Below, one piece after another: positions 32,125 to 47,799 of a stretch of DNA of 61,121 nt; the first letter of the stretch is position 1, and the number at the start of each line of letters is the position of its first letter. Origin of the DNA: Syntrophaceae bacterium UBA1411 (lineage in GTDB: Bacteria > Desulfobacterota > Syntrophia > Syntrophales > Smithellaceae). A program made the translations under genes and the position numbers. The notes beneath the pieces were generated by a model. That model saw nothing but the letters and a program-made list of their open reading frames with translations, did no database searches and was not told the DNA's origin. The stretch lies in NCBI GenBank assembly GCA_002304995.1, contig DBPV01000097.1, positions 7,434 through 68,554 on the forward strand, read 5' to 3'.

Positions 32125-33270
32125 TCATTTGAAGGCGCCGAAGCCGGTGTAGGTCGGGACGTCCAGATCCTCGCGGCCGCCCCGCATCGGATGGGCCGCC
32201 TCCCAGTCGACCCGGCCGTCCCAGGCGCCGGTTACGGCCCAGGCATTGACGTCCGAATCGCAAGGCGAGACCGGGCAGATGCCGGTTTCGGGGATAACCT
32301 CGCTGGGAATAAGCGCATAGCCGTAAATCAACGCCAGCACGACCAGGAGCGGCGATCCGTCGGCGGTCATTTCCCGGGCCACAAAATAATGGTCCGCGGC
32401 GGCGTAGTTGAGATCGCAGCAGTTGGCCTGGCATGAGTTGCGCTGGGCGATGACGTGCCCAAGTGCGCCGCTCACGTCGTTGCCGGAAAAAGCCATGGCT
32501 TCGTCGATGATCCGCTGTGTTCTGGCGTCATCCACCGGCGTCCAGGAATTGCAGGTATACGTGCACTGAAGGGTCGTTGTCTGTGCCGGGCCGTCCTCCA
32601 GGGCATGGGCGATTTCATGCGCGAGCAGCGTTTTGCCCTCGCGGCTCGCGGGCGAAAAGGCTCCGTCGCCGAATACAAGGTCGCGGCCGAGGCAGAAGGC
32701 TCTGGCGCCGACGGCGTTTGCCGCCCGGACTGCCTGTTCGTCCGTGTGGATGCGCAGGAAACCGAGGTCGTATCCGAAGCGCGGTTCGAAGAAGGACCGC
32801 AGGGCATCCGGCAGCGCCCGTCCCGCTCCCAGCGAATGAATTTCGGCTTCGGCCGCCGGGCTCACGGCCAGACCTTCGCTTCCGCTATCGCCGGCCTTCC
32901 GGTGCGGACGGTTTTGTTGTCCGCCGTCGAGCGGCATTTTTTCAAAAGCGTCGGACCTGTTCATGACGTCATCGGCGATGCGTCTGGCTTCCCGCTCGCC
33001 AAAGCTTTCGGAGCGGCCGGCCTTGAGGCTTGCGTGGATGCGGATGGGGCAGGCGTGGCAGGCGCCGCCGAACGGACAGGAGCGCGGCGCCGGAAGCGGA
33101 CAGAGAGAATCTTTTGTGTCTTGCGGATAGACCGCGACGTCGTTGAAGCGGTGATGGACCGTAAAAGAAGCCGAGGCGGCTTTCGGAACTCCGCTTGACC
33201 GCGCGGAAAGCGGACCGGCCGTCCGTCCGGTTTCATGCCTTTGCTGGACAGTGACTGCTTTTTGATGCAT
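32125..33270 (-). CDS. eCIS core domain (DUF4157) protein with an uncharacterised Cys-rich C-terminal domain
   Basis: Start ATG 33270 after GAGGTG; LPDALRSFFEPRFGYDLGFLRIHTD...ARAFCLGRDLVF...LLAHEIAHA (HExxH) followed by LQC. Confidence 0.8.
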   Translation of the reverse strand: MHQKAVTVQQRHETGRTAGPLSARSSGVPKAASASFTVHHRFNDVAVYPQDTKDSLCPLPAPRSCPFGGACHACPIRIHASLKAGRSESFGEREARRIADDVMNRSDAFEKMPLDGGQQNRPHRKAGDSGSEGLAVSPAAEAEIHSLGAGRALPDALRSFFEPRFGYDLGFLRIHTDEQAVRAANAVGARAFCLGRDLVFGDGAFSPASREGKTLLAHEIAHALEDGPAQTTTLQCTYTCNSWTPVDDARTQRIIDEAMAFSGNDVSGALGHVIAQRNSCQANCCDLNYAAADHYFVAREMTADGSPLLVVLALIYGYALIPSEVIPETGICPVSPCDSDVNAWAVTGAWDGRVDWEAAHPMRGGREDLDVPTYTGFGAFK

Positions 33271-33665
33271 CGGACACCTCCTTTTAAAAAACGGCGACGA
33301 AAATTTCAGGAAAAGAGCCATGGGCGCTTTGGCATTGCGCTGCGCCCGCCAAACAGCCCCGGGACAGCCCGGATCAAAAGTTTGTGCCGGAAACAGCGTC
33401 GCGCCATCGGAGTCAGGCTCTGGTAAGCCAGGTTCCTGCCGCAGGATGATCGATGATCGGTAGAGACAATAAGATTGAGAAATTCTTGTTGACCTTTTGG
33501 GCCGGTTCGTCAAGTGCAATTTTTTAAAGCGCCGGACGCTTTCTGCGGACGTTTCGGGGCAGCGGATTTTTTTGCGCCGTTTCAGCGGCGGTTGCGGCTC
33601 ACCTGCTTTCGGATGACCGTGAGGCCGTGGTGGTATTTTCCACAAAAATAAAGTAAGAAGCGCGC

Positions 33666-34664
33666 ATGAAAAACACACGCACAGCACAGGATATTTTGCA
33701 ATTGGCCCGCGGATTCATGGAAAGCCGGCTTCTTTTGACCGCCGCCGAGTTGAATCTTTTCACGCTGCTTGACGAGGCGCCGGCAACCGCCGCAGCGCTG
33801 GCCGGACGTCTGCCCGCCGACTTACGGGGGCTCACGATTCTGCTCGACGCCCTTGCGGCAATGGGGCTTATGATGAAAACGCCGGACGGCGCCTATCGCC
33901 CGGCGTCCGATGCCGCGGTGTATCTGAACGAAAAAAGCCCGCAGTCGGTGCTGCCGATGGTCCTGCATGCAAACTCCCTGTGGAAAAGCTGGTCGAGCCT
34001 CACCACGAAGGTGACGGGCAGCGAACCGTTTGCGATCCCCCCGGCGGAGATCCGCTCCGCCGAAGAGATTCAGGCATTTATCGGCGCCATGCACGTGGTG
34101 GGCCTGCCGATGGCGCGTCAAATCGTCAAGGCCGTTGCAATCGAAAACGCCAGGAACCTGATCGATGTGGGCGGCGCGTCCGGCACGTACACGATAGCCT
34201 TTCTTTCGGCCGCGCCCTACATGAGAGCGACGCTGTTCGACCGGCCCGCGGTGATCGACCTGGCGCGCGAACGCCTTGCCGCAGAAGGCCTGATAAGCCG
34301 GGTTCGCCTGGTCGCGGGAGATTTTTACACGGACGAACTGCCCGGCGGGCATGATCTGGCGCTCGTTTCCGCCATCATCCATCAGAACGGCCCCGCGCAA
34401 AACGTCGATCTCTTCCGGAAGGTCTGCCGCGCCCTGGTTTCCGGAGGGCGGATCATCATCCGGGATCACATCATGGCGCCGGACCGCGTCACGCCCGAAG
34501 AGGGCGCGTTTTTTGCGGTCAATATGCTGGTGAATACACAGGCGGGATCGACGTACACGTTTGCCGAAATCCGGTCCTGGCTTGAGGAAGCGGGATTCGT
34601 CAACGTGCGCCTGGTGCAAACCGGCAGCCGCATGGACGGTCTGATCGAAGCCGCCGTCCCCTGA
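33666..34664 (+). CDS. SAM-dependent O-methyltransferase (dimerisation domain + Methyltransf_2)
   Basis: LIDVGGASG, LFDRPAV, VAGDFY, SAIIH, GGRIIIRD. Confidence 0.88.
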   Translation: MKNTRTAQDILQLARGFMESRLLLTAAELNLFTLLDEAPATAAALAGRLPADLRGLTILLDALAAMGLMMKTPDGAYRPASDAAVYLNEKSPQSVLPMVLHANSLWKSWSSLTTKVTGSEPFAIPPAEIRSAEEIQAFIGAMHVVGLPMARQIVKAVAIENARNLIDVGGASGTYTIAFLSAAPYMRATLFDRPAVIDLARERLAAEGLISRVRLVAGDFYTDELPGGHDLALVSAIIHQNGPAQNVDLFRKVCRALVSGGRIIIRDHIMAPDRVTPEEGAFFAVNMLVNTQAGSTYTFAEIRSWLEEAGFVNVRLVQTGSRMDGLIEAAVP

Positions 34665-36488: not shown

Positions 36489-37220
36489 TTATTTGCGGTC
36501 GGGGTCGTAGGCGGCAGCCAGTTCCGGATGCGTTTGCAGATGCTGCTGCGCCCGTTCGACCTTCTGATCCAGCGACAACTCCTCGTCCTTTTCTATCGCC
36601 ATCAGATAAAGCAACTGGAGAGACTGTTTTTCCTCTTCGGCGTAAAAAGCGGATGCCACGTCTGCGCCGAAATACGCCAGACGCAAATCATGCATTCCTT
36701 TGAAGCGCTCGATGACTTCTTCGAGGGTTGCCGGCTGCTCGTCCGGAGGATAGCTTATTTTCACATTCCGCGTATAGTTAACGAAATAATCCAGCAGATT
36801 GGCAACCTGACGCTGCGCCGAATCGGGAAGCACCTTTGACAGCTTCTGCATTTTTTCCGCTAATTCGTCGGGTGTGTTGAGCGCGCATAACTTTTCGATG
36901 TTGAGGCGCGTTTTTTCATTGAGTACAAGATTGCCGTGCGCGTCGGCCGAAAACATGGCGTAGATTTCTTCCTTTTCAGCCGCTTCTTTTTTTTCTTTGG
37001 CCTCAGGCTGCAAGACGGCCGCAACAGCCTTGCAATCCGCGGAGCTGCATGCGGTGATCCTGTTTTCCGGCGGCTGATGCTTTGTGTGCGTGGAAAGTAC
37101 ATGCCTGGCGACGCTTCTGTACTGCGCCAGTGGCGGGGACTCGCGATCCCGCGTAAGGTAGCCTGCCGCTCCTCCGGCAACCAGCACAACCAGCAGCAGC
37201 CATATCCATTTGCCCTTCAT
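36489..37220 (-). CDS. Lipase secretion chaperone (Lif/foldase)-like protein
   Basis: N-terminal TM anchor (WIWLLLVVLVAGG), low-complexity linker, then all-helical region with LRLAYFGADVASAFYAEEE and IEKDEELSLDQK, resembling the Lif C-terminal motif; follows the hydrolase gene. Start could be 37244 or 37268. Confidence 0.65.
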   Translation of the reverse strand: MKGKWIWLLLVVLVAGGAAGYLTRDRESPPLAQYRSVARHVLSTHTKHQPPENRITACSSADCKAVAAVLQPEAKEKKEAAEKEEIYAMFSADAHGNLVLNEKTRLNIEKLCALNTPDELAEKMQKLSKVLPDSAQRQVANLLDYFVNYTRNVKISYPPDEQPATLEEVIERFKGMHDLRLAYFGADVASAFYAEEEKQSLQLLYLMAIEKDEELSLDQKVERAQQHLQTHPELAAAYDPDRK

Positions 37221-37297
37221 GAAGCTTGCTTTCTCGATGAGCATGGGAAGAATATTCTCCTTTGTCAAGTGTCCCGATCTTTGGCCGAGGGCGGCAC

Positions 37298-37330
37298 AAA
37301 CGCGCCGGATCGGGGCGATCCGGCGCGTTT
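37298..37330. other. 15-bp perfect hairpin between the hydrolase and chaperone genes (partial terminator or mRNA stabiliser)
   Basis: AAACGCGCCGGATCG-GGG-CGATCCGGCGCGTTT. Confidence 0.55.
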
Positions 37331-37352: not shown

Positions 37353-38195
37353 TTAATACGGACAGGTGCTCAGATATGTGTCGAACCGTGAACTGGTCGC
37401 GTAAGCCGTATGCTCGGCGCCGCACAGAAACGGCGTGTAGCGGGTGTCGCCGTCAACGAAGCGTTTGGCGAAGGCCACACCGTAGCGGCCGATGCGCTGA
37501 TCCGTGCTGTTCGGCGTAAAGTGCGTCGCGCCGTTGAGCAGGGCGTACGCTTTTTCAGGGTAGCTCAGGCTGTTGTAGAAGGGACGCGCATGCGACGCAT
37601 AGGGCGCAATGGTGTCTCCGTCCGCGCCGAAAATCATCTGGGGCACGCGCACCGAGGAGAAACTGGTATAGGTGTTCCACGGCGTCAGCGGAATGCCGGC
37701 GCGCAGCGTCGAATCGTTCGCGGAGGCGATGAGTGTGCCGCCGCCGCCCATTGAATGCCCCGCCACGGCTCGGTCAGCGGTGCGGATGCGGGCCCGGATG
37801 GTGCTGCTCGACGAGTTGAGCAGATAGCGCAGCGCCGCGGCGAGCTGCGTGGCGCGGCTTGACGGATAATCGTAGATGGTGTTCGTGTTCATGGCGATAG
37901 TCACAAATCCGTGCGTGGCCAGCCTCCGGGCAAACCAGGAAATCGAGGAGCTTGTTCCGGTAAAGCCGGGGCACACCGCAACGGCCGCATACTGTCCGGA
38001 CGTGGTCGGATAGTAGATCGTTCCGCCGCCGAACCCCGTCACCAGACTGGAGACACTGTCCGTCGACACGGCAAAAGGCCCGTCGCCGTTGAGCAGTGTC
38101 GATGTCGGCGCAGGACCGATCTCCACCGCATAAGTCATACTTACGGCCAACAGCACAGTAAAGATCGCAGACAACAACATTTTCCAAACTTTCAT
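37353..38195 (-). CDS. Secreted cutinase/PET-hydrolase-like alpha/beta hydrolase (LCC/Thermobifida type I family)
   Basis: Start ATG 38195 after GGGAGG; signal peptide; GFGGGTIYYP, PGF, LATHGFV, DYPSSRATQL, GHSMGGGG (Ser), PLTPW, GADGDTIAP (Asp), ATHFTPN (His), DGDTRYTPFLC...TCPY (disulfide). Confidence 0.93.
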   Translation of the reverse strand: MKVWKMLLSAIFTVLLAVSMTYAVEIGPAPTSTLLNGDGPFAVSTDSVSSLVTGFGGGTIYYPTTSGQYAAVAVCPGFTGTSSSISWFARRLATHGFVTIAMNTNTIYDYPSSRATQLAAALRYLLNSSSSTIRARIRTADRAVAGHSMGGGGTLIASANDSTLRAGIPLTPWNTYTSFSSVRVPQMIFGADGDTIAPYASHARPFYNSLSYPEKAYALLNGATHFTPNSTDQRIGRYGVAFAKRFVDGDTRYTPFLCGAEHTAYATSSRFDTYLSTCPY

Positions 38196-38476
38196 AAAGA
38201 ACCTCCCCCCCTTTTTTGATCGTTCTGTAAAAGTTGCTTCATAATGGCCGCCGCCCTCTATGGAGGCGGGCGGCGGCCAACACCGCGCGGACACGCATTT
38301 TAGTCGCCGTTTTCCTGGACCCATCCGTCGTCACGATGAACAAATCCACAGAAAGCTTTATGGAACCATCCCCCCCCGTGAATGCGTGATTCCTGCCGGG
38401 CAGGCAGTTATAAAAATAGACCGCCACCGGAAACAAAAGGATACGATGATCATAAAATGTGAATTTGCATTATGTA

Positions 38477-38492
38477 AGCAGGACGCATGCCA
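38477..38492 (-). promoter_or_regulatory. sigma54 (-24/-12) promoter facing the hydrolase-chaperone genes
   Basis: - strand TGGCATGCGTCCTGCT (GG-N10-GC spacing); divergent from a sigma54 activator gene. Confidence 0.75.
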
Positions 38493-38675: not shown

Positions 38676-40835
38676 ATGGAGAATCTGAATACCGACACCA
38701 TCACCAAGGAAAAGTCCAAAGCAGACGACGCGCGTCCGGGTCATCAGGGAAGCGATTCCCCGCTGGACTTTTACAAAATGTTCAACGGCGAAGTCGATCT
38801 GGAAAAGGGCGTTACTCCCCAGGAGGTCCTGCGGGCGTGGCTGGCATTCAAGGAGCTCACGCTTGGCGAGTGGAATGCGTTTGTCAGCGGCGCGGAAAAA
38901 ATCGACACGTCCGTTGTTCCGCCGCTGATTTTTAAAAGCTGGCAGCGCAGCCGGGAATACGGCATCAATCCCCGCGGAGCACTGAACAATGAGATTCTGG
39001 CGGGCCGGGCCCTTGAGGAGCTGTTTCAAAACAACCGGCTGCTCATCGATATCAGTCAGCCTTTCCTGGACAGGCTTTACAAATCCATGACGACCAGCAG
39101 TTTCACCGTGTCGCTCTCCGACAAAAACGGCTACATTCTGAAGGTCATGCAGGATGAAAAGTACGTGGACCTCCACCGGCAGTTCAACTGGCGCCCCGGC
39201 GCGCTTTGGACGGAGGAATGCTGCGGCACCAACACCATCGGGACTCTGCTGAAGCAGAAAAAGCCGCTGCAGATCATCGGCGCCCAGCATTACAAGCAGA
39301 TCTTCCATTTTCTGGCCACGTCGAGCGCGCCGATTATCGATCCGGAAGGCGAGGTCATCGGCGGCATCAGCATCATTTCTCTTTTATTCGGCGCGCACCC
39401 GCACACGCTGGGCATGGCCATCGCCGCCGTACACGCCATTGAAAACGAGCTGAGACTCCGCAAAGCGCTGGACCGCCTGCAGAGCGCCTTTTCCGAAACG
39501 GACATTGCCTACAGCCTGCAAAAGGCGATCATCGCCTCCATTCCCGAAGCGTTGATCGCCGTCAACACCGCGGGAAAAATCACCGCCGTCAACGCGCGCG
39601 CGCAAAAGCTGTTCGGGCTGGAAAACAGCGCCGTCGCGGGTGAGCCTCTGGAAGCCGTCTTTCCCGAAGAAGCCAACCGGCGCTTCTGGAATTTGATCAA
39701 CCGTCGGGATCCGCTGACGGACAGAGAGGTTCGCCTTTATTCTTCCAGGGGATCCGGCGACTTTACGCTGACGTGCAGCAGCATTTATTCGTCGGGCGGA
39801 ACGGCCGCGGGCAGGATACTCCTTTTTTCGGAAATCCAGAGAATCAAATCCCTGGTGAACAAATTTGCCGGCGCCAAGGCCAACCTGAAATTTTCCGATA
39901 TTCACGGCCGCAACGAGCAGCTGCGACGGATCATTGACGAAGCCCATGTGATTTCCAAAAGTGCGTCCAACGTGCTTCTGCTGGGCGAAAGCGGCACGGG
40001 CAAAGACATTCTGGCCCAGGCCATTCACAACGCCAGCCCGCGCCGGGACGGCCCGTATGTGGCCATCAACTGCGCGGCGATCCCCCGCGATCTGATGGCG
40101 AGCGAACTGTTCGGCTACGCCGAAGGGGCGTTCACGGGCTCGCGTCGCGGCGGCAGCCAGGGGAAATTTGAAATGGCCGACGGCGGCACGATTTTTCTGG
40201 ACGAAATCGCCGAAATTCCGCTGGACATCCAGGCGGTGCTCTTGCGCGTGATTGAAGACAAGTGCGTGCTGCGCATCGGTTCCAACCAGATCCGGACGGT
40301 CGATGTGCGGATTGTCTGCGCGACAAACAAAAACCTGATTGAGGAGGTGAACCGGGGAAGCTTTCGCAGGGACCTCTATTACCGCCTGAATGTTTTCAAC
40401 ATCCATCTGCCGCCGCTGCGCGAAAGGAAGGACGACATTCCGCTGCTCGCGGAAGCGTTTGTGAAAAAATGCGCCTGTGCCCTGGGCAAGACCATCGCCG
40501 GCGTCGATGATAAGGTGCTGGAGTTTTTTGTGCATTATTCCTGGCCCGGCAACGTGCGGGAGCTGCAGAATGTCGTGGAGCGCATGGTGAATTACGCCGC
40601 TTCGGACCGCCTGACGTTCGATCTGGTTCCACGGGAAATTGCCGGCATCGACCGGTCAAAATCCACGTCCTTCGATCTGGTGGCGCCCGATGAAACGGAG
40701 AAGAATCTCATCGGCCGGATGCTGGCTTTGAAATTCAGCAAAGTCCAGATCGCCCGCAAACTCAACATCTCCCGGGCGACGCTTTTTCGCAAATTGAAAA
40801 AGCACGGCTTGGCCGGAAAACCGTCCGGCGATTAG
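38676..40835 (+). CDS. sigma54-dependent enhancer-binding protein (GAF-PAS-AAA+-Fis HTH, AcoR-like)
   Basis: IFKSWQRS GAF, GTNTIG, GESGTGKD, ELFGYAEGAFTGS, FLDEI, FRRDLYYRLN, WPGNVRELQN, C-terminal ISRATLFRKLKK. Confidence 0.95.
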   Translation: MENLNTDTITKEKSKADDARPGHQGSDSPLDFYKMFNGEVDLEKGVTPQEVLRAWLAFKELTLGEWNAFVSGAEKIDTSVVPPLIFKSWQRSREYGINPRGALNNEILAGRALEELFQNNRLLIDISQPFLDRLYKSMTTSSFTVSLSDKNGYILKVMQDEKYVDLHRQFNWRPGALWTEECCGTNTIGTLLKQKKPLQIIGAQHYKQIFHFLATSSAPIIDPEGEVIGGISIISLLFGAHPHTLGMAIAAVHAIENELRLRKALDRLQSAFSETDIAYSLQKAIIASIPEALIAVNTAGKITAVNARAQKLFGLENSAVAGEPLEAVFPEEANRRFWNLINRRDPLTDREVRLYSSRGSGDFTLTCSSIYSSGGTAAGRILLFSEIQRIKSLVNKFAGAKANLKFSDIHGRNEQLRRIIDEAHVISKSASNVLLLGESGTGKDILAQAIHNASPRRDGPYVAINCAAIPRDLMASELFGYAEGAFTGSRRGGSQGKFEMADGGTIFLDEIAEIPLDIQAVLLRVIEDKCVLRIGSNQIRTVDVRIVCATNKNLIEEVNRGSFRRDLYYRLNVFNIHLPPLRERKDDIPLLAEAFVKKCACALGKTIAGVDDKVLEFFVHYSWPGNVRELQNVVERMVNYAASDRLTFDLVPREIAGIDRSKSTSFDLVAPDETEKNLIGRMLALKFSKVQIARKLNISRATLFRKLKKHGLAGKPSGD

Positions 40836-40976: not shown

Positions 40977-41918
40977 CTATCGTTTGTTTTTTCTTCGGAG
41001 GTATTGGTTCATTTGCGGCGGATCAAGCTCGATCCAGTCCACCTTTTGAAGCAGCGTCCATTCGGCGTCCGTGTAGCCGCGGTCCTTATTGTAGGTAAAG
41101 ACGCCGACAAACTTCACCTTGCGGGATTTTTTCCAGTATTCCGCAAGGTCGGGATTCGCAAAGAAAATGTCGTCCTGGATCAGAATGAAGTCGAGCGGGT
41201 GTTCCTTTTTGCCCAGAAAGCCCAGGAAAAAAGTAAATTTGCTGATTGGGGTAATGTCGACGGATGAATAGTGATGGCTGAGAAAGCGGAGGCCCCAGTG
41301 GTCGTTGAAGACCAGCCCCCCCACCATGCACTCCGGGCAGACGGCCTTGAGCGGATCAATATTATTGGCGAAAAAGGATGACGCGAACACGTGATCCTGA
41401 AATCCGTAGGTTTTGATCATTTCGCCCACCCACCGCGCAAAGGCTTCGACATGTTTGCCTTCTTCTTTCATGTCCAGGGAAACCATCGGGACAATTCCCT
41501 GTGCTTTTTTCTCCTGAATAAGTTCAAACAATTCCACAACCGTCAGAAAGGGCTGCGGCGGCAGATTGGGATTGGCGGCGTTGGGCGGAATTTTGGCATA
41601 GCTGTCGTATTTTTCGCTGAAAGCGCCGGGAAGTCCCGTGGCGCGTTTCATCAGATAGTCGTGTGAAACCAGACCGATCCGGTTTCCATTGGCGTCGACG
41701 AAATCGATGATGTCCAGTTCGATATTGGGATTGCCGGATTCCAGCGCTTTGGAAAGAGCCGCTTTTGAGTTTTCCTGGGCGAAGGACGCATCGCCGCGGT
41801 GCCAGCCGGCTGCCGGGAAGTTGAAAGCCGTGCCTTCTCCGCAGAGAAAAATAAAGAACGAAACCGTCAAGACGAGCGCCATCCCGGCTTTTCCTGTCCA
41901 TTTGCTGAAAGTCTTCAT
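40977..41918 (-). CDS. Glycerophosphodiester phosphodiesterase-like secreted protein
   Basis: Signal-like N-terminus; HRG...QENS...IELDI...HD, LDMKE, FASSF, typical of GDPD. Start re-set to 41918. Confidence 0.7.
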   Translation of the reverse strand: MKTFSKWTGKAGMALVLTVSFFIFLCGEGTAFNFPAAGWHRGDASFAQENSKAALSKALESGNPNIELDIIDFVDANGNRIGLVSHDYLMKRATGLPGAFSEKYDSYAKIPPNAANPNLPPQPFLTVVELFELIQEKKAQGIVPMVSLDMKEEGKHVEAFARWVGEMIKTYGFQDHVFASSFFANNIDPLKAVCPECMVGGLVFNDHWGLRFLSHHYSSVDITPISKFTFFLGFLGKKEHPLDFILIQDDIFFANPDLAEYWKKSRKVKFVGVFTYNKDRGYTDAEWTLLQKVDWIELDPPQMNQYLRRKNKR

Positions 41919-42136
41919 GAGTCGCCTCCGCCGCTTTATTTGTTTTGATGAGATGCCTGCCGAAAAAAATTCAGTTCTTTTCACACGGCATGGTGATGCA
42001 TGGAAATGGATATTTGTTGAAGGAAGTGATTAAAACAGTATCCGAAAAGAGTCAATGGAAATGTAACCGGAAGAAAGATTTTACTCCATCTCCCACCGAT
42101 CCTTTTTTATTTTTGCGGCTGCTTTTCATTCGGGAG

Positions 42137-42191: not shown

Positions 42192-44030
42192 TTAGACGGC
42201 AAAGGCGTCTTCAGCGATGTTCATGGCGCTCTGTTCGTCCTTCTTGATCGAGTCCAGCTTGGCCGGGACCAGCGCGGTGATGCGGTTGATAAAGAATTTC
42301 GCCCCCTGGATTTTGCCGTTGTAGAACGCTTTGTCCCTGTCGTTTGCGGCATTGGCCAGGCCCTTGGCGGCGGCGTTGGCCATCCAGACATGCAGCCAGC
42401 CCACGAGCGCGTCGGACAGGCAGTTGAGGTAATCGGCGGCGCCGATGAGCGGAACGTAAGGCGTGGTTTTCATCATCTTGGCAAATTCCATGGCCGCTCC
42501 GGCGCAGGCGTTGAGCGCGCCTTCCACAACGGCGGCTTCAGCTGCTAAAGCGTCGGATTTCTTGGCTTCGGCAATCGCCGCCTGGGTGAGCCCCAGAAGG
42601 TTCATGAAATACAATCCCTTCTTCATTCCGAGTTTGCGTCCCAGGAGATCCATGGCCTGAATGCCGTTGGTGCCTTCGTAAATCAGGTTGATCTTCTGGT
42701 CGCGCATCATCTGTTCGACCGGATATTCGCGGCAGAAGCCGTAGCCGCCGTAGGTCTGCACGGCCAGCTGGCAGACGTCCATCCCCATTTCCGTGCAGTA
42801 GGATTTGACCATCGGGGTGAGCATCTCGATCATGCCGTGCCAGTATTCCTTGTCCTGCTCATTGTTTTCGGCATGGGCATTCATTTCCTTGTCCATGGCA
42901 TAGTAGCAAAGGAAGGCCAGCGCGCGGATGCCTTCCGTGACGGACTTCTGCCGAAGCAGCATGCGGCGGACGTCCGGATGCTGGATGATGGGAACCTGGG
43001 GCGCTTTTTCGTCCTTCATGGCTACGGAGATGATGTTCTGGCCCTGGAGGCGCTGCTTGGCGTAGTCGAGCGCGTGCAGGTAAGCCGCCATCGCGAGCGA
43101 AACGCCCATCATGCCGACGCCCTGGCGTTCTTCGTTCATCATCTGGAACATGATTTTCATGCCGGCGCGCTCTTCACCCATGAGGTAGCCGATGCATTTG
43201 CCGTTTTCGCCGAAGTTGAGCGTGCAGGTGGCGTTGCCGTGGATGCCCATTTTGCTTTCGATGCCGCCGCAGTTGACGTCGTTGGGTTCGCCCAGTTCGC
43301 CTTTCTCGTTGATGCGGATTTTGGGCACGACAAAAATGGAAATGCCCTTGGTGCCGGAAGGATCGCCTTCAATGCGGGCCAGCACCGGATGGATGATGTT
43401 TTCGGCCAGGTCATGGTCGCCGGCGGAAATGAAGCACTTGGTGCCGGTGATGGAGTAGGTTCCGTCCGCATTCCTTTTGGCGGTCGTCTTCAGCGCGCCC
43501 ACGTCGGAGCCGGCGCTGGGTTCGGTGAGGCACATCGTGCCGCCCCACACGCCCGTGTACATCTTTTCGAGAATAACCTGGCGCAGAGGATGCTGGAAGA
43601 AGTCTTCCACCAGACGCGCCGCGCCGTGGGTCAGTCCCGCGTACATCAAAAAGGCCTGGTTGGTGGCCAGGAACATGTGGTAGCAGGACGCCCCGATGAT
43701 CTGCGGGAAGACCTGTCCCCCGACTTCGGCCGAATCGGATACGGACATCCAGCCGCCCTCGTTATAGAGTTTCCAGAGACGATGATAGGCTTCCGGCGCA
43801 AAGACTTTGCCGTCCTTGAACACCGCTTCAACGGGTTTGCGATGAACTTCATCCGGATAGGTGGGGGCGATGTCGTTCTCGGCGAATTTCTGCGCCTGAT
43901 CGAGCACCATGTTGCACATATCGGCGTCATGATCGGCATAGCGGCCCTTGCCCAGAATCGTTTCTCCGATATTGAAAACCTCATACAGCTGAAATTTGAT
44001 ATCTCTTTCATCAATCCACAAACTAGCCAT
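42192..44030 (-). CDS. Acyl-CoA dehydrogenase (long form, FadE5-like)
   Basis: GTMCLTEPSAGSDVG, ITGTKCFIS, KGISIFVVPK, KMGIHGNATC, QMMNEER, GGYGFCREYPVEQ, IYEGTNGIQAMDL. Confidence 0.95.
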   Translation of the reverse strand: MASLWIDERDIKFQLYEVFNIGETILGKGRYADHDADMCNMVLDQAQKFAENDIAPTYPDEVHRKPVEAVFKDGKVFAPEAYHRLWKLYNEGGWMSVSDSAEVGGQVFPQIIGASCYHMFLATNQAFLMYAGLTHGAARLVEDFFQHPLRQVILEKMYTGVWGGTMCLTEPSAGSDVGALKTTAKRNADGTYSITGTKCFISAGDHDLAENIIHPVLARIEGDPSGTKGISIFVVPKIRINEKGELGEPNDVNCGGIESKMGIHGNATCTLNFGENGKCIGYLMGEERAGMKIMFQMMNEERQGVGMMGVSLAMAAYLHALDYAKQRLQGQNIISVAMKDEKAPQVPIIQHPDVRRMLLRQKSVTEGIRALAFLCYYAMDKEMNAHAENNEQDKEYWHGMIEMLTPMVKSYCTEMGMDVCQLAVQTYGGYGFCREYPVEQMMRDQKINLIYEGTNGIQAMDLLGRKLGMKKGLYFMNLLGLTQAAIAEAKKSDALAAEAAVVEGALNACAGAAMEFAKMMKTTPYVPLIGAADYLNCLSDALVGWLHVWMANAAAKGLANAANDRDKAFYNGKIQGAKFFINRITALVPAKLDSIKKDEQSAMNIAEDAFAV

Positions 44031-44061
44031 AGAAACATCCTCCTTCCATTGTTAATAAGAA

Positions 44062-44109
44062 GTAGAGAACGGTCTTGTGACCTTCAGGTCATCACAAGCC
44101 GTTCCCTAC
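44062..44109. repeat. GTAG-type REP-like palindrome (REPIN-like doublet)
   Basis: GTAGAGAACGG-TCTTGTGA-CCTTCAGGTCA-TCACAAG-CCGTTCCCTAC: long inverted repeat starting GTAG and ending CTAC, intergenic. Confidence 0.55.
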
Positions 44110-44166
44110 AGAGTTATAATGTCACGGGTAATCTCAATGTGAACTGATTTCACTCATGACAGCATG

Positions 44167-46248
44167 CTATTTTTCTATTGCCAGAAATCCGTTCGGGTGG
44201 AAGTCGCTCCCCGTCACCTTTTTCGAAATGCCTTTCTGGTCCAGGAAGGGAGTAATCCCGCCCATGAACAACGGCCAGCCGGCGCCCATGATGACGCCGG
44301 TGTCAATATCTTTCGGACTTGCCACGACGCCTTCCTTGAGGATGATGTCGACTTCCACGGCGATGCGTTCCAGCACGCGCTGCCGTATTTCGTCGTCGGT
44401 GAATTTCTTGTTGCCCTGCGGCCAGCCCGCCAGAATTTCGGGATCGACGGCGACGCCCTTGTCCGTCAGGATCAGGATGGCTTTCTTTCCCTTGGCCACC
44501 AGATTCTTGAGGCCCTCATTCACCTTAAACCGGTCCGGCCACGCTTTGTTCAGGGTTTCGAGCACGTGCAGGGAGATGGCGGGCCCGACGAGCGCGGTCA
44601 GGGTGAAAGGCGACATGGGGAAGCCCATCTCGTGAATGGCCATGTCCGTCTGCAGGAAATCGGCCCCTTCGTCGAGCACGCGGAAGATGCCGTCCGACAT
44701 GGCCGTCAGAACGCGGTTCACGAGGAAGCCGGGGGCGTTTGCCACCAGGACCGGCGTCTTCTTGATCTTTTTGGCAATGTCGAAAGCCGTGGCCAGGACG
44801 ACATCGCTGGTCTTGTCCGTTTTAATGATCTCAACCAGCGGCATCATCGCGATGGGATTAAAGAAGTGGAACCCGACCACGCGGGACGGATCTTTCAGGA
44901 ATTTGCCCATCTCGGCGACATCGAGAGACGAGGTGTTGGTCAGGAACATGCATTCGGGTTTGCAGGCAGCTTCCAGATCCCCGAAGACCTTTTGTTTTAC
45001 GGACATCTCTTCGAAAACCGCCTCGATGACGAAGTCGCAATCCTTGAATTCATCATAGGATATCGTTCCGGTGATGAGTTCTTCGCCCATCCACTTGGCT
45101 TCGGCCTCGGAAAGTTTACCTTTCTTCGCCGTCTTCGCCAGCTGATCCCGGACGTAGGCCAGACCTTTGTCCACAAATTCCTGCTTGATGTCCTTCATGA
45201 TCACCGGGCACTGGTAGCGCTGGGCAAACAAAAGCGCCATCTGGGAGGCCATGAGGCCGGCGCCGATGACGCCGATCTTGGCGATCTTGTTGCCTTTGAC
45301 TTCTTTGGGCGGCCGGCCGGGAAGCTTCTTGGCGCGGCGCTGGGTGAGGTCAAACGAGTAAATGCCGCACTTGAACTGATCGGAGGTGATCATGTCGGCC
45401 AGCGCTTCATTCTCTTTCTGGAATCCTTCATCGAGCGACCAAACGCCCGCTCCCTTGATAAGTTCCAGCGCGCGGTAGGGTGCTAATGCGCCCGAATGAA
45501 CCCTGCCGACAATCATTGCTTTGGTCTTGTTGTAGAGCTCGTCGCTCATCTTTGGATCGACCGCCTTGCGCTCGATCTTTTCTTCGCCGGTGATGATGCG
45601 TTCCAGCAACGCCAGGGATTCGTCCACAAACTCCGCCGGTGCGATCAGTCTGTCCGCCAGACCCATTTCAAAGGCCTTTACGGAATTGATCATTTTGTTC
45701 ATGTTGAGCGGATTGGAGATGACGAGTTCGATGGCGACCTGCGGTCCGCAAAGTTTGGTGACCAGCTGCGTTCCGCCCCAGCCCGGCACGAGGCCCAGGA
45801 AGCACTCGGGGAGCGCATAATGATCGCATCCGCCCGGGCTTTTGGAGATGGTGCGGTAGTTGTGGTAAAGTCCGACCTCGACGCCGCCGCCCATCGTGGC
45901 GCCATTGTATGCGGCCAGTGTCGGAATCTTGAGCCCCATGATGCGTTTGAAGGTCTGATGCCCCGCGGCGCCGATTTCGAGGGCCGCCTGCTTCGTTGCA
46001 TTCGGATCGGCGCTCATGATGTCGGCGCCGACATTGAAAATGAAAGGCTTGCCGGTCAGGAACCAGCCCTTGACATCCTTATCCTTCTCTACGACGTCGA
46101 TGACTTTATTGAGCGACTCCAGGGCCTCAACGCCCCAGGTATTGGGGATGTTGGGAAACTGCCCGTTGTCCATCGTGACGATCGCTATCTTGCCCGCCTT
46201 CTTTGACTGAAAGAAGTTTAATTTACATTCCGTTATGTATTTAGCCAT
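44167..46248 (-). CDS. fadB: Fatty-acid oxidation multifunctional enzyme (enoyl-CoA hydratase + 3-hydroxyacyl-CoA dehydrogenase)
   Basis: GGGVEVGL and LPECFLGLVPGWGGTQ (two catalytic Glu); VIGAGLMA, IEAVFEE, TNTSSL, GFHFFNP, PGFLVNR. Confidence 0.9.
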   Translation of the reverse strand: MAKYITECKLNFFQSKKAGKIAIVTMDNGQFPNIPNTWGVEALESLNKVIDVVEKDKDVKGWFLTGKPFIFNVGADIMSADPNATKQAALEIGAAGHQTFKRIMGLKIPTLAAYNGATMGGGVEVGLYHNYRTISKSPGGCDHYALPECFLGLVPGWGGTQLVTKLCGPQVAIELVISNPLNMNKMINSVKAFEMGLADRLIAPAEFVDESLALLERIITGEEKIERKAVDPKMSDELYNKTKAMIVGRVHSGALAPYRALELIKGAGVWSLDEGFQKENEALADMITSDQFKCGIYSFDLTQRRAKKLPGRPPKEVKGNKIAKIGVIGAGLMASQMALLFAQRYQCPVIMKDIKQEFVDKGLAYVRDQLAKTAKKGKLSEAEAKWMGEELITGTISYDEFKDCDFVIEAVFEEMSVKQKVFGDLEAACKPECMFLTNTSSLDVAEMGKFLKDPSRVVGFHFFNPIAMMPLVEIIKTDKTSDVVLATAFDIAKKIKKTPVLVANAPGFLVNRVLTAMSDGIFRVLDEGADFLQTDMAIHEMGFPMSPFTLTALVGPAISLHVLETLNKAWPDRFKVNEGLKNLVAKGKKAILILTDKGVAVDPEILAGWPQGNKKFTDDEIRQRVLERIAVEVDIILKEGVVASPKDIDTGVIMGAGWPLFMGGITPFLDQKGISKKVTGSDFHPNGFLAIEK

Positions 46249-46260
46249 AATATGAGCCTC

Positions 46261-47472
46261 CTAGATTGTTTTCCCGACTACGTTTTCCCAAATGATCGAA
46301 CCGCCCATGCCCAGGCCCACGCACATGGTGGTGAGTCCGTACCTGGCTTTCGGATTCAACTCGAAATCCTGCGCCAGCTGCATGCTCAGGCGGACGCCGG
46401 AGCTGGCCAGCGGATGACCCATGGCAATGGTTCCGCCGTAAGGATTGAGTCTGGGATCTTCCGGAGTCTTCATGCCGAAGTGCTTCATGAAGCCGACCGC
46501 CTGCACGGCAAAGGCTTCGTTGAGTTCAATGATGTCGAGATCCTCGAATTTCATGCCGTAGTTTTTCAGAACCTTTTCCGTGGAGGGAACCGGTCCCCAT
46601 CCCATGACGGACGGATCGACGCCGACGAAGGCGGCGCCCACAAACTTCATCTTGGGTTTGATGCCGAGCTCTTTGCATTTTTTACCGGACATCAGAAGCG
46701 ACACGCAGGCGCCGTCGTTCAATCCCGAGGCATTCGCCGCGGTGACATGACCTTCCGCTTTGAAGGGGAACTTCCGGAGGCCTTTGATGCTCTCCAGGGT
46801 GGTTCCGCGTTTGGCCTGTTCATCACGGTCGGCAACTCTCCACCCCGTGGGGGAGAATACCGTCATATTGACGCAGTGCTTATCGTAGTAGCCGGCATCC
46901 AGTGCCTTGAAGTATCTTTCCAGGACATGGAAAGCATACTCATCCGCCTCGTCTTTGGTGACCGGCTGTTCGCCATGTTCAGGCATCCAGTCATGCAGCT
47001 TTTCGGCCGTGTTGCCCATGTTAAAGTATTTCGGTTCCACCATTTTCTCGGTAACGATCCTGGGATTCGGATCAGCACCCGCCCCCATGGGGTGGTGGGC
47101 CATGTGTTCCACACCGCCGGCAATGATCATATCGGCAACGCCTGTTCTGATATAGGACGAGCCGATGCTCTGACAGGTCATGCCGCCCGCGCACATCCGG
47201 TCCACGGAGAATCCCGCCACGGTTTCCGGCAGGCCTGACGTGAAGACAACGGTTCTGCCCATCGTGGTTCCCTGATCTCCGACCTGCGTCGTTGCGCCCA
47301 TGATACAATCATCCACCTCTCCCCATGGAACGGCAGGATTTCTTCTCACAAGCTCTTTTATGACTTTTGTAACCATGTCATCCGCACGCGTGTACCAGTA
47401 GAAACCGTCCTGTCTGGCTTTTCCGAACCATGTCCGCACGCCGTCTACAAAATACGCATCTCTTAAATCCAT
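46261..47472 (-). CDS. fadA: Acetyl-CoA C-acyltransferase (3-ketoacyl-CoA thiolase)
   Basis: DRMCAGG, NASGLNDGA, ELNEAFA, GHPLASSG, TMCVGLGMG. Confidence 0.93.
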   Translation of the reverse strand: MDLRDAYFVDGVRTWFGKARQDGFYWYTRADDMVTKVIKELVRRNPAVPWGEVDDCIMGATTQVGDQGTTMGRTVVFTSGLPETVAGFSVDRMCAGGMTCQSIGSSYIRTGVADMIIAGGVEHMAHHPMGAGADPNPRIVTEKMVEPKYFNMGNTAEKLHDWMPEHGEQPVTKDEADEYAFHVLERYFKALDAGYYDKHCVNMTVFSPTGWRVADRDEQAKRGTTLESIKGLRKFPFKAEGHVTAANASGLNDGACVSLLMSGKKCKELGIKPKMKFVGAAFVGVDPSVMGWGPVPSTEKVLKNYGMKFEDLDIIELNEAFAVQAVGFMKHFGMKTPEDPRLNPYGGTIAMGHPLASSGVRLSMQLAQDFELNPKARYGLTTMCVGLGMGGSIIWENVVGKTI

Positions 47473-47783: not shown

Positions 47784-47799
47784 AGCATTCATCGTGCCA
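47784..47799 (-). promoter_or_regulatory. sigma54 (-24/-12) promoter of the fadA-fadB-ACAD operon
   Basis: - strand TGGCACGATGAATGCT (TGGCAC-N5-ATGCT). Confidence 0.85.

Follow-up and report, generated by a model that had tools for sequence, protein, structure and literature searches.

The window analysed here is a stretch of 61,121 nucleotides from contig DBPV01000097.1 of Syntrophaceae bacterium UBA1411. It carries, at 37353..38195 on the reverse strand, an intact open reading frame (ORF) for a 280-residue hydrolase precursor (ATG at 38195), directly downstream of which lies the gene of a short Lif-type lipase-specific foldase (36489..37244, reverse strand). A ribosome-binding site, GGGGGGAGG (38202..38210, reverse strand), is located 6 nt 5' of the hydrolase ATG. 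Residues 1-23 of the precursor (38127..38195, reverse strand) read MKVWKMLLSAIFTVLLAVSMTYA and are followed by VEIG; they have the traits of a Sec signal peptide, namely two lysines (Lys2 and Lys5), a hydrophobic stretch and a TYA/VE junction, and a lipobox is absent. The predicted mature N-terminus aligns with the mature N-termini of TfCut2 and LCC, and the mature protein has approximately 257 residues, a mass of 27.3 kDa and a pI of about 9. A preliminary description of the locus had called the enzyme secreted, and the signal-peptide part of this claim is supported by these traits and by the published relative 505 (discussed below), which was cut at the same site.

A comparison of the hydrolase with the Pfam family PF12740 ('PETase') yields an E-value of 7.1e-98 and 327.6 bits (cut-off 28). 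The match covers profile positions 5-263 of 263 and is far beyond chance. A sequence search of the PDB returns 179 distinct relatives, and the best E-values belong to ancestral PETase reconstructions (8e-88), Thermobifida cutinases (about 1e-84) and LCC (9e-74). An alignment was made with IsPETase (identical to 9M8H/6ILW), LCC (identical to 4EB0) and two T. fusca cutinases (locus L026), and the residues are numbered on the precursor. Every motif listed in the preliminary description is found at its homologous position in this alignment. The GFGGGTIYYP strand begins at residue 54, Phe78 of the PGF motif occupies the position of IsPETase Tyr87, and GHSMGGGG supplies His147, Ser148 and Met149; Trp173 belongs to TPW, Asp194 to GDTIAP, and His225 and Phe226 to THFTPN. 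The alignment predicts a Ser148-Asp194-His225 triad, an oxyanion hole of Phe78 and Met149, and a subsite lined by His147, Trp173, His202/Phe206 and Phe226. His202 and Phe206 of the SHARPF motif are homologous to Ser214 and Ile218 of IsPETase, the pair that restrains the tryptophan, and the 'H...F pair' noted earlier at this motif was thus correctly called. Cys258 and Cys278 (FLC...TCPY) form a candidate disulfide and are the only candidate pair present, in agreement with the single C-terminal disulfide that had been proposed, and Cys75 (AVCPGF) is a third, unpaired cysteine. Ser148, Met149, Asp194, Phe206 and His225 are invariant in 43 homologues of 60-95% identity; His147, Trp173, His202 and Phe226 are the majority residues (34-41 of the 43), and Phe78 alternates with Tyr.

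The criteria that define type I among hydrolases of poly(ethylene terephthalate) (PET) are reportedly those of the classification of Joo et al. from 2018. The window enzyme has one C-terminal cysteine pair, His147 at the position of Trp159, Phe226 at the position of Ser238, and no insertion. In the alignment to IsPETase and LCC, the second disulfide and the three-residue insertion in the β8-α6 loop are both absent from the hydrolase, which is assigned to type I for this reason; Ala191 and Thr227 stand at the positions of IsPETase Cys203 and Cys239. An IsPETase-like type II identity is ruled out, as the Cys203-Cys239 pair, Trp159/Ser238, Ser214/Ile218 and the extended loop are all missing. Identity with BdeA, the hydrolase of bis(2-hydroxyethyl) terephthalate (BHET), is likewise ruled out at the equivalog level (NCBIfam NF051441; 294.9 bits, cut-off 520).

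The AlphaFold2 model of the hydrolase, built from 43 homologues, has a predicted local distance difference test score (pLDDT) of 92.6, with the signal segment appearing as a low-pLDDT helix over residues 2-20. The best Foldseek match of the model is TfCut2 (4CG1), with template-modelling (TM) scores of 0.87/0.93, a root-mean-square deviation of 1.6 Å and 54% identity, and the predicted fold is a lid-less α/β-hydrolase with a nine-stranded sheet. The profile match, the PDB relatives, the alignment and the superposition on 4CG1 all agree with the LCC/Thermobifida-like type I assignment of the preliminary description, and at the level of predicted sequence features the hydrolase is confirmed as a member of the polyesterase-lipase-cutinase family (PF12740; Arpigny-Jaeger family III) that resembles type I PET hydrolases. 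A tblastn search of the source genome finds one hydrolase and one Lif and no paralogues. Two genomes from the genus of the source genome, G113 and G109, hold 19 and 17 matches to PF12740, most of which are divergent paralogues of 100-140 bits that often stand in tandem (e.g. G113:C16:14-22 kb); some syntrophs thus show a large expansion of esterases.

The foldase gene encodes 251 residues from an ATG at 37244, with an alternative TTG start at 37268, and is separated from the hydrolase gene by 108 nt. This spacer has a minimum free energy of -47.7 kcal/mol (z = -4.4) and contains a perfect 15-bp hairpin with a CCC loop (37298..37330, reverse strand), which stands after the stop codon of the hydrolase and ahead of the start codon of the foldase. 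The hairpin is probably a partial terminator or an mRNA stabiliser that sets the enzyme:chaperone ratio, and it could reduce read-through into the foldase gene. The Lif protein matches Pfam PF03280 with an E-value of 7.9e-11 and 42.7 bits (cut-off 25.7) over profile positions 1-92 of 192. A profile of 23 Lif proteins searched against the PDB finds A. baumannii LipB (9G8U_B, E 3.4e-8) and also the P. aeruginosa LipH mini-domain, and the counterpart of the Lif alignment in LipB spans residues 24-183 of 302. The top four Foldseek matches of the Lif model are A. baumannii LipB, B. glumae Lif (two chains) and P. aeruginosa LipH, with probabilities of 0.99-1.00, and every other match is below 0.1. 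At its N-terminus the protein has a membrane anchor, in which Lys residues come before the hydrophobic segment WIWLLLVVLVAGGAAGY; a linker of variable sequence and a periplasmic domain that is conserved and all-helical follow. In the model, residues 9-40 form a helix and residues 100-255 a helical domain of high confidence. From these matches, the protein is read as a shortened Lif variant that keeps mini-domain 1 (MD1) and the extended helical region and is without mini-domain 2 (MD2).

Two further observations concern the Lif proteins of this group. In the low-confidence linker, a Cys-x4-Cys pair (ACGTPDCK or ACSSADCK; here at about residues 65-72) is present in most close deltaproteobacterial Lifs and absent from the beta- and gammaproteobacterial Lifs (alignment A1). 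Additionally, many Smithellaceae genomes contain a second, full-length class of Lif (ORFs of 332-433 residues, Pfam positions 1-190), which sits away from the high-scoring hydrolase, as at G046:C56:52055-52648, G113:C11:57164-57748 and G098:C1:4301520-4302101; in G113 and G098, the full-length Lif lies 3-5 kb from divergent PF12740 paralogues.

The pairing of the two genes is conserved well beyond the window. A Lif gene lies directly 3' of the hydrolase in 23 of 23 non-redundant proteobacterial/deltaproteobacterial pairs aligned, and the pairing holds for all delta-, beta- and gammaproteobacterial relatives retrieved, which come from Smithella, Syntrophaceae and other Deltaproteobacteria metagenome-assembled genomes (MAGs) and from Steroidobacter, Aquabacterium, Hydrogenophaga and Roseateles. 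No Lif is found within 4 kb at any of about 60 actinobacterial homologue loci, nor at the IsPETase-like locus of Rhizobacter (L039). The paired genes occur in at least five different neighbourhoods, which include β-oxidation genes (the window), transposases (L004), flagellar genes (L007) and ATPase genes of the type II secretion system (T2SS) type (L003 and L006). On a tree of 90 sequences, Lif linkage requires 2 changes, compared with 22.8 for shuffled labels, and the hydrolase and Lif distances are correlated (Mantel r 0.67, with none of 5000 permutations as high). Among 116 species genomes of the family, 14 contain a full-scoring hydrolase (at least 260 bits), and 13 of these 14 have a short-type Lif match within about 1 kb. 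A class-wide scan of 339 species genomes from 72 genera finds matches of E 1e-60 or better, taken as true orthologues, in only the same 14 genomes, all from three genera of one family, Smithellaceae. The deltaproteobacterial hydrolases form one clade with 100% support in the Shimodaira-Hasegawa-like approximate likelihood ratio test (SH-aLRT), and this clade adjoins Hydrogenophaga, Aquabacterium and Roseateles, with SH-aLRT values of 83-89 at those forks. This pattern fits an old horizontal transfer of the whole module, in either direction.

Variations on the arrangement are seen in other genomes. In other Smithellaceae, the pair adjoins a 480-residue AF1763-like lipase and a second hydrolase copy; at L003:6001-10901, the order is hydrolase, Lif, the 480-residue lipase (Lipase_2/Lipase_C) and the second hydrolase, and at L005:1-6820, a sigma-54 activator stands between two hydrolase-Lif pairs. 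Such arrangements look like a lipolytic island. Loci L247-L254 (Caldimonas, Rhizobacter LjRoot28 and Aquabacterium sp.) encode type II-like polyesterases related to enzyme 504 (discussed below), and a Lif-like gene with a weaker match (54-75 bits) is their immediate upstream neighbour, in the opposite orientation. Because these type II-like loci also have a Lif-like gene, the Lif association may go back to an ancestor of most of the family's Gram-negative members.

A sigma-54 -24/-12 promoter motif, TGGCATGCGTCCTGCT (GG-N10-GC; 38477..38492, reverse strand), is located approximately 280 nt 5' of the hydrolase start codon. A second such motif, TGGCACGATGAATGCT (47784..47799, reverse strand), lies upstream of a β-oxidation operon (42192..47472, reverse strand) identified by profile matches, which comprises, all on the reverse strand, a thiolase gene (46261-47472), a FadB-like enoyl-CoA hydratase/3-hydroxyacyl-CoA dehydrogenase gene (44167-46248) and the gene of a 612-residue acyl-CoA dehydrogenase (ACAD; 42192-44030). 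These are the only two exact matches to TGGCAY-N6-TGCW in the 61 kb, both are intergenic and both face operons; the chance expectation for the stricter motif is 0.23 per window. The divergently transcribed gene of a 719-residue sigma-54 enhancer-binding protein (EBP; 38676..40835, forward strand), with a sensor region, a PAS domain, an AAA+ sigma-54 interaction domain and a helix-turn-helix, sits between the two promoter motifs, and it occupies the same place at loci L001 and L002. The hydrolase promoter motif is kept at -293 in L001 and L002 and is present at -303, with a different spacer, in L008; no sigma-54 motif is found 5' of the hydrolase in L003-L007 or L009-L012. Judged from these motifs, the sub-lineages of L001, L002, L008 and L013 may be the only ones under sigma-54 control.

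The hydrolase-Lif pair is probably co-regulated with the β-oxidation operon, as far as the motifs indicate. The link to fatty-acid oxidation made in the preliminary description gains support from this context, in which the operon adjoins the pair, each is preceded by a sigma-54 promoter and the enhancer-binding protein is shared, and a role of ester hydrolysis in feeding β-oxidation would fit the operon, the promoters and the neighbouring lipases of the related loci. Between the activator and ACAD genes lies a 335-residue ORF (40977-41984, reverse strand) whose match to glycerophosphodiester phosphodiesterase stays below the threshold (E 5.6e-4, 20.5 bits, cut-off 23.6), at the place of which L001 and L002 (95% syntenic) have a shorter ORF of 123-162 residues. 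Elsewhere in the window, a 520-residue protein (32125-33687, reverse strand) contains an eCIS_core (DUF4157) domain (E 7.7e-24), and none of its scanned neighbours is a contractile-injection gene. No Rfam families or tRNAs are found in the window.

The source genome is a MAG of 148 contigs that is 95.8% complete. The nearest homologues of the hydrolase are from 'Smithellaceae bacterium' (95%, 86% and 70% identity) and 'uncultured Smithella sp.' (91%), followed by 'Syntrophaceae bacterium UBA7520/UBA5764' (89% and 86%), and the exact protein is found on 40 contigs. The flanking carboxyltransferase is 96-89% identical to proteins from Deltaproteobacteria/Smithellaceae MAGs, and 80 of its 80 relatives are of the Thermodesulfobacteriota type. 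Two independent assemblies that bear the 95% orthologue, a 214-kb ENA contig and a 107-kb JGI contig (loci L001 and L002), have the same order of FadB, ACAD, sigma-54 activator, hydrolase, Lif and carboxyltransferase, and because they reproduce this order the contig is not chimeric. The hydrolase gene has a GC content of 0.61 and a GC content at third codon positions (GC3) of 0.76, and the neighbouring genes are alike. An origin from an aerobe or from a chimeric assembly, which the preliminary description had named as grounds for withdrawing its proposal, is rejected on synteny, flank taxonomy and composition.

Smithella is a syntrophic degrader of propionate and of alkanes and fatty acids. 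The anaerobic, syntroph-like host proposed earlier agrees with the Smithella/Smithellaceae homologues and flanks, with the failure to find a haem-copper oxidase (COX1) in the 95.8%-complete source genome, and with its [FeFe]-hydrogenase genes, of which there are at least three or four. A cytochrome bd oxidase is present, and matches to this family are also obtained in the control genomes of Bacteroides and Methanosarcina; such oxidases are common in strict anaerobes. On this genomic evidence, the hydrolase gene is native to a Smithellaceae genome of strictly anaerobic character. The genome also encodes three secretins and a GspG-type T2SS pseudopilin. Its sole gene of the DSBA family (PF01323) lies outside the window at C23:6155-6724 (reverse strand), lacks a signal peptide and has an in-frame TGA exactly where the first redox residue is expected (FSDYV-U-PFCY); its product resembles a FrnE-like selenoprotein of the cytoplasm.

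The hydrolase clade is not unknown, since one member is already included in a published PET-hydrolase screen. Candidate 505 of Erickson et al. 2022 (PMC9772341) is OGP67040.1 from Deltaproteobacteria bacterium RBG_16_44_11, which is 100% identical to the hydrolase of locus L014 and 68.8% identical to the window enzyme, and it falls in the same 100%-supported deltaproteobacterial clade. It was truncated in that study at VEIGPAPT, which is the predicted mature start of the window enzyme. Only soluble enzymes obtained at 0.1 mg/L or more were taken into the screen, which used E. coli without Lif, and both 505 and its version with the native signal peptide have empty rows in the expression table (PMC9772341). 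The row of candidate 502 (PKO68961.1, HGW-Betaproteobacteria-16) is likewise empty (PMC9772341); this protein is 100% identical to the hydrolase of locus L259, which has a co-directional Lif directly downstream. Candidate 504 from Caldimonas was obtained at 1.7 mg/L in E. coli and hydrolysed PET (PMC9772341). It has two disulfides and Phe at the Tyr87 position, and in its relatives the weaker Lif-like gene is found upstream, in the opposite orientation. The failures of 502 and 505 suggest, without proving it, that hydrolases in co-directional pairs depend on Lif, two candidates being a tiny sample; 504 weakens any general rule by which a linked Lif would foretell failure in E. coli.

The main text of Erickson et al. 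has no match for 'chaperone' and does not mention the Lif neighbour (PMC9772341). A search of a literature library finds no paper that links a PETase to a lipase-specific foldase or a lipase chaperone to a polyester hydrolase, and none that links a PET hydrolase to Smithella. The top-ranked matches for PETase together with Syntrophales, Syntrophaceae or Desulfobacterota do not mention PETase.

Taken together, these features point, with a probability of about 0.7, to a Lif-assisted, secreted carboxylesterase of the lipase/cutinase family that feeds syntrophic β-oxidation. The precursor would be exported by Sec and cleaved after Ala23. In the periplasm, the membrane-anchored short Lif would act as a steric chaperone for the hydrolase, on the model of Pseudomonas LipA/LipH, and the 15-bp intergenic hairpin would lower expression of the chaperone relative to the enzyme; the hydrolase is most likely folded with the help of this shortened Lif. 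The folded enzyme would then leave through the T2SS, although its crossing of the outer membrane is an inference. Outside the cell, Ser148, His225 and Asp194 would hydrolyse insoluble or emulsified esters such as triacylglycerols, wax esters, cutin/suberin and other polyesters in an open, lid-less groove, with Phe78 and Met149 contributing their backbone NH groups to the oxyanion hole. The freed fatty acids and hydroxy-acids would be imported and oxidised by the products of the adjacent thiolase/FadB/ACAD operon, which the shared sigma-54 activator would turn on along with the hydrolase. Hydrolysis of synthetic polyesters, including poly(ε-caprolactone) (PCL), PBAT [poly(butylene adipate-co-terephthalate)], BHET and, slowly, amorphous PET, is plausible as a side activity and not as the natural role. 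The enzyme probably has a mesophilic origin, and real PET turnover would be modest for this reason.

Several observations weigh against this reading. The MD1 motif RxxFDY(F/C)L(S/T)A is degenerate in the window Lif, where it reads TRLNIEKLCAL, with the Arg kept, Glu at the Asp position and the Tyr lost, and the protein is without the C-terminal MD2, which clamps the lipase; because of both changes, foldase function is not assured. The gene of sigma-54 itself, rpoN (PF04552, RpoN box), is not found in the 148 contigs of the 95.8%-complete source MAG, so that the case for sigma-54 control relies on the motifs and the adjacent activator; since rpoN occurs in each of the 30 relatives searched, an assembly gap is the likely cause. 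Periplasmic DsbA and DsbB are also not found in the source genome, where VKOR-type oxidases were not searched. Finally, roughly one candidate in three failed overall in the screen that included 502 and 505 (PMC9772341), and Lif linkage is not always Lif dependence, because 504 was expressed and active.

An esterase that stays in the periplasm or bound to the cell and acts on small soluble esters, such as monoacylglycerols, lysolipids or short aromatic or aliphatic diesters of the BHET type, would account for the signal peptide, which indicates only Sec export to the periplasm, for the periplasmic location of Lif and for BdeA being the closest NCBIfam model (294.9 bits). The BdeA score is, however, far under the equivalog cut-off of 520, and the characterised members of the family are, according to their PDB titles, extracellular, surface-active enzymes with open grooves. 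Moreover, the Lif-assisted enzymes of LipA/Lif systems are T2SS substrates according to PMC9638971 and PMC13381987, the source genome has secretins and a GspG pseudopilin, and T2SS-type ATPase genes adjoin the pair in L003 and L006; a small-ester enzyme that is not a depolymerase is accordingly considered unlikely. Slightly less credence still is given to a Lif-like protein that serves as a tether, a secretion adaptor or an inhibitor while the hydrolase folds by itself as actinobacterial cutinases do. The truncation of Lif (Pfam positions 1-92 of 192; LipB residues 24-183 of 302), its degenerate MD1 motif, the foldase independence of actinobacterial type I cutinases and the production of active 504, an enzyme with a Lif-like neighbour, in E. 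coli are all what a non-foldase would lead one to expect. The strict pairing in three proteobacterial classes and the co-divergence of hydrolase and Lif argue against it, the only sequence and structure relatives of Lif are bona fide foldases, and both co-directional-Lif enzymes that were tried, 502 and 505, yielded no protein without Lif.

A depolymerase dedicated to PET/PBAT, for which man-made polyester in digesters would have selected, appears very improbable, despite a complete type I PET-hydrolase motif set and the presence of Phe at the Tyr87 position in the PET-active 504 as well. The pair occurs in 14 Smithellaceae species from three genera, with 60-95% divergence, and also in several orders of proteobacteria, and this spread and divergence indicate that its origin is far older than plastics. 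The context is one of fatty-acid β-oxidation, with no terephthalate-related genes among the scanned neighbours, and similarity to hidden Markov models predicts PET activity poorly, with an area under the curve of 0.58 (Erickson et al., PMC9772341). Least probable is a binning or assembly artefact that placed aerobic Burkholderiales or actinobacterial DNA on a Smithellaceae contig. Outside the deltaproteobacterial clade, the closest relatives that bear names are indeed aerobes (Hydrogenophaga, Aquabacterium, Roseateles and Steroidobacter), but the artefact is rejected on the FadB-ACAD-EBP-hydrolase-Lif-carboxyltransferase order shared by the 214-kb and 107-kb contigs, whose assemblies are independent, the exact protein on 40 contigs, the Smithellaceae-like character of both flanks, GC and GC3 values indistinguishable from those of the neighbours, and the 100% SH-aLRT support of the clade.

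If the preferred reading of a Lif-assisted, secreted carboxylesterase is correct, a syntrophic fatty-acid oxidiser carries out its own extracellular ester hydrolysis without relying on fermenters, and lipolysis and β-oxidation are placed under one sigma-54 activator. This bears on the attack on fats, cutin/suberin and biodegradable polyesters in digesters and sediments. The enzyme itself is a further member of a known family, and the more interesting aspect is the Lif-coupled, Gram-negative branch of this cutinase/PET-hydrolase family: the proteobacterial branch has a dedicated foldase gene, and the published screens did not co-express a foldase. A bolder and tentative proposal is that the branch constitutes an unrecognised Lif-dependent subclass of Gram-negative PET hydrolases/cutinases, in which a 'one-armed' Lif is obligatory and which passed from Burkholderiales-like aerobes to Smithellaceae, where it entered a sigma-54/β-oxidation regulon. 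Such a subclass, doubtful as it is at present, would explain the failure of 502 and 505 in E. coli, and co-expression of the cognate Lif would unlock a polyesterase clade that includes enzymes able to work in anoxic digesters. The Lif partner, which the preliminary description does not mention, is the feature that matters most for expressing the hydrolase; since 502 and 505 gave no protein, Lif co-expression could open an unexplored clade, the practical value of which is limited by the probably mesophilic origin.

In the LipA-LipH/Lif/LipB systems of Pseudomonas, Burkholderia and Acinetobacter (2ES4, 9G8U, 6GSF), as in the window, an enzyme gene is followed by that of a membrane-anchored Lif in one operon, and periplasmic folding precedes type II secretion (PMC9638971 and PMC13381987). 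The client in the window is a PF12740 enzyme of family III, in contrast to the true lipases of families I.1/I.2, and the window Lif is approximately 100 residues shorter than canonical Lifs, has no second mini-domain and carries a degenerate form of the RxxFDY motif.

Ester hydrolases of strict anaerobes are already known, and those of C. botulinum (Cbotu_EstA/B), Hungatella hathewayi (Chath_Est1) and Pelosinus fermentans (PfL1) hydrolyse PBAT (PMC12504347). In being ester hydrolases of strict anaerobes, they resemble the window enzyme. They belong to other α/β-hydrolase families (lid-bearing, Zn-binding I.5-like lipases and others) and not to PF12740. Their hosts are Gram-positive or Negativicutes, and to our knowledge none of them has a Lif partner.

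Est-H/Est-L of Roseateles depolymerans TB-87 and PbsA of Acidovorax delafieldii are Burkholderiales polyesterases of the same family as the window enzyme. Est-H and Est-L degrade PBAT, poly(butylene succinate) and poly(butylene succinate-co-adipate), and the degradation of PBAT by TB-87 is cited in PMC12504347. At the Roseateles locus L007, which lies near the deltaproteobacterial clade in the tree, a hydrolase is followed by a Lif-like gene; this L007 homologue, which is the sequence compared here, is approximately 62% identical to the window enzyme. The Roseateles and Acidovorax hosts are aerobic, and no sigma-54 or β-oxidation context is seen in L007. A chaperone-like gene, est-Ch, was reportedly described in the TB-87 cluster by Ahmad et al. 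(2019, in Polym Degrad Stab). Within the deltaproteobacterial clade, 505 resembles the window enzyme in that its locus, L014, has Lif directly downstream, and differs in having Tyr, Tyr, Met and Leu at the positions of His147, Trp173, His202 and Phe226, where the window enzyme has the canonical residues.

Ideonella sakaiensis PETase (type IIb) shares with the window enzyme the family, the triad, the Ser-Met oxyanion pair, the equivalent of Trp185 and the C-terminal disulfide. Its Cys203-Cys239 pair, Trp159, Ser238, Ser214/Ile218 and three-residue loop extension are missing from the window enzyme, and the nearest IsPETase-like locus (L039), unlike the window, is without Lif. Close counterparts in predicted structure are the Thermobifida cutinases (TfCut2, 4CG1; Thc_Cut1/2) and LCC (4EB0), type I PET hydrolases which belong to the same Pfam family and have the same predicted fold (TM 0.87-0.93), with identities to the window enzyme of 54% for TfCut2 and 46-48% for LCC. 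They share with it the triad, GHSMGGGG, the Trp clamp, the His/Phe pair, the Phe after the catalytic His, the single C-terminal disulfide and the absence of a lid. Compared with TfCut2 and LCC, the window enzyme has an oxyanion Phe in place of Tyr, the additional Cys75 and a C-terminal segment that is two residues longer. The Thermobifida hosts are thermophilic aerobic actinomycetes, whereas the window host is a Gram-negative strict anaerobe, and the actinobacterial cutinase genes are without Lif or a sigma-54 promoter, whereas the window gene has both.

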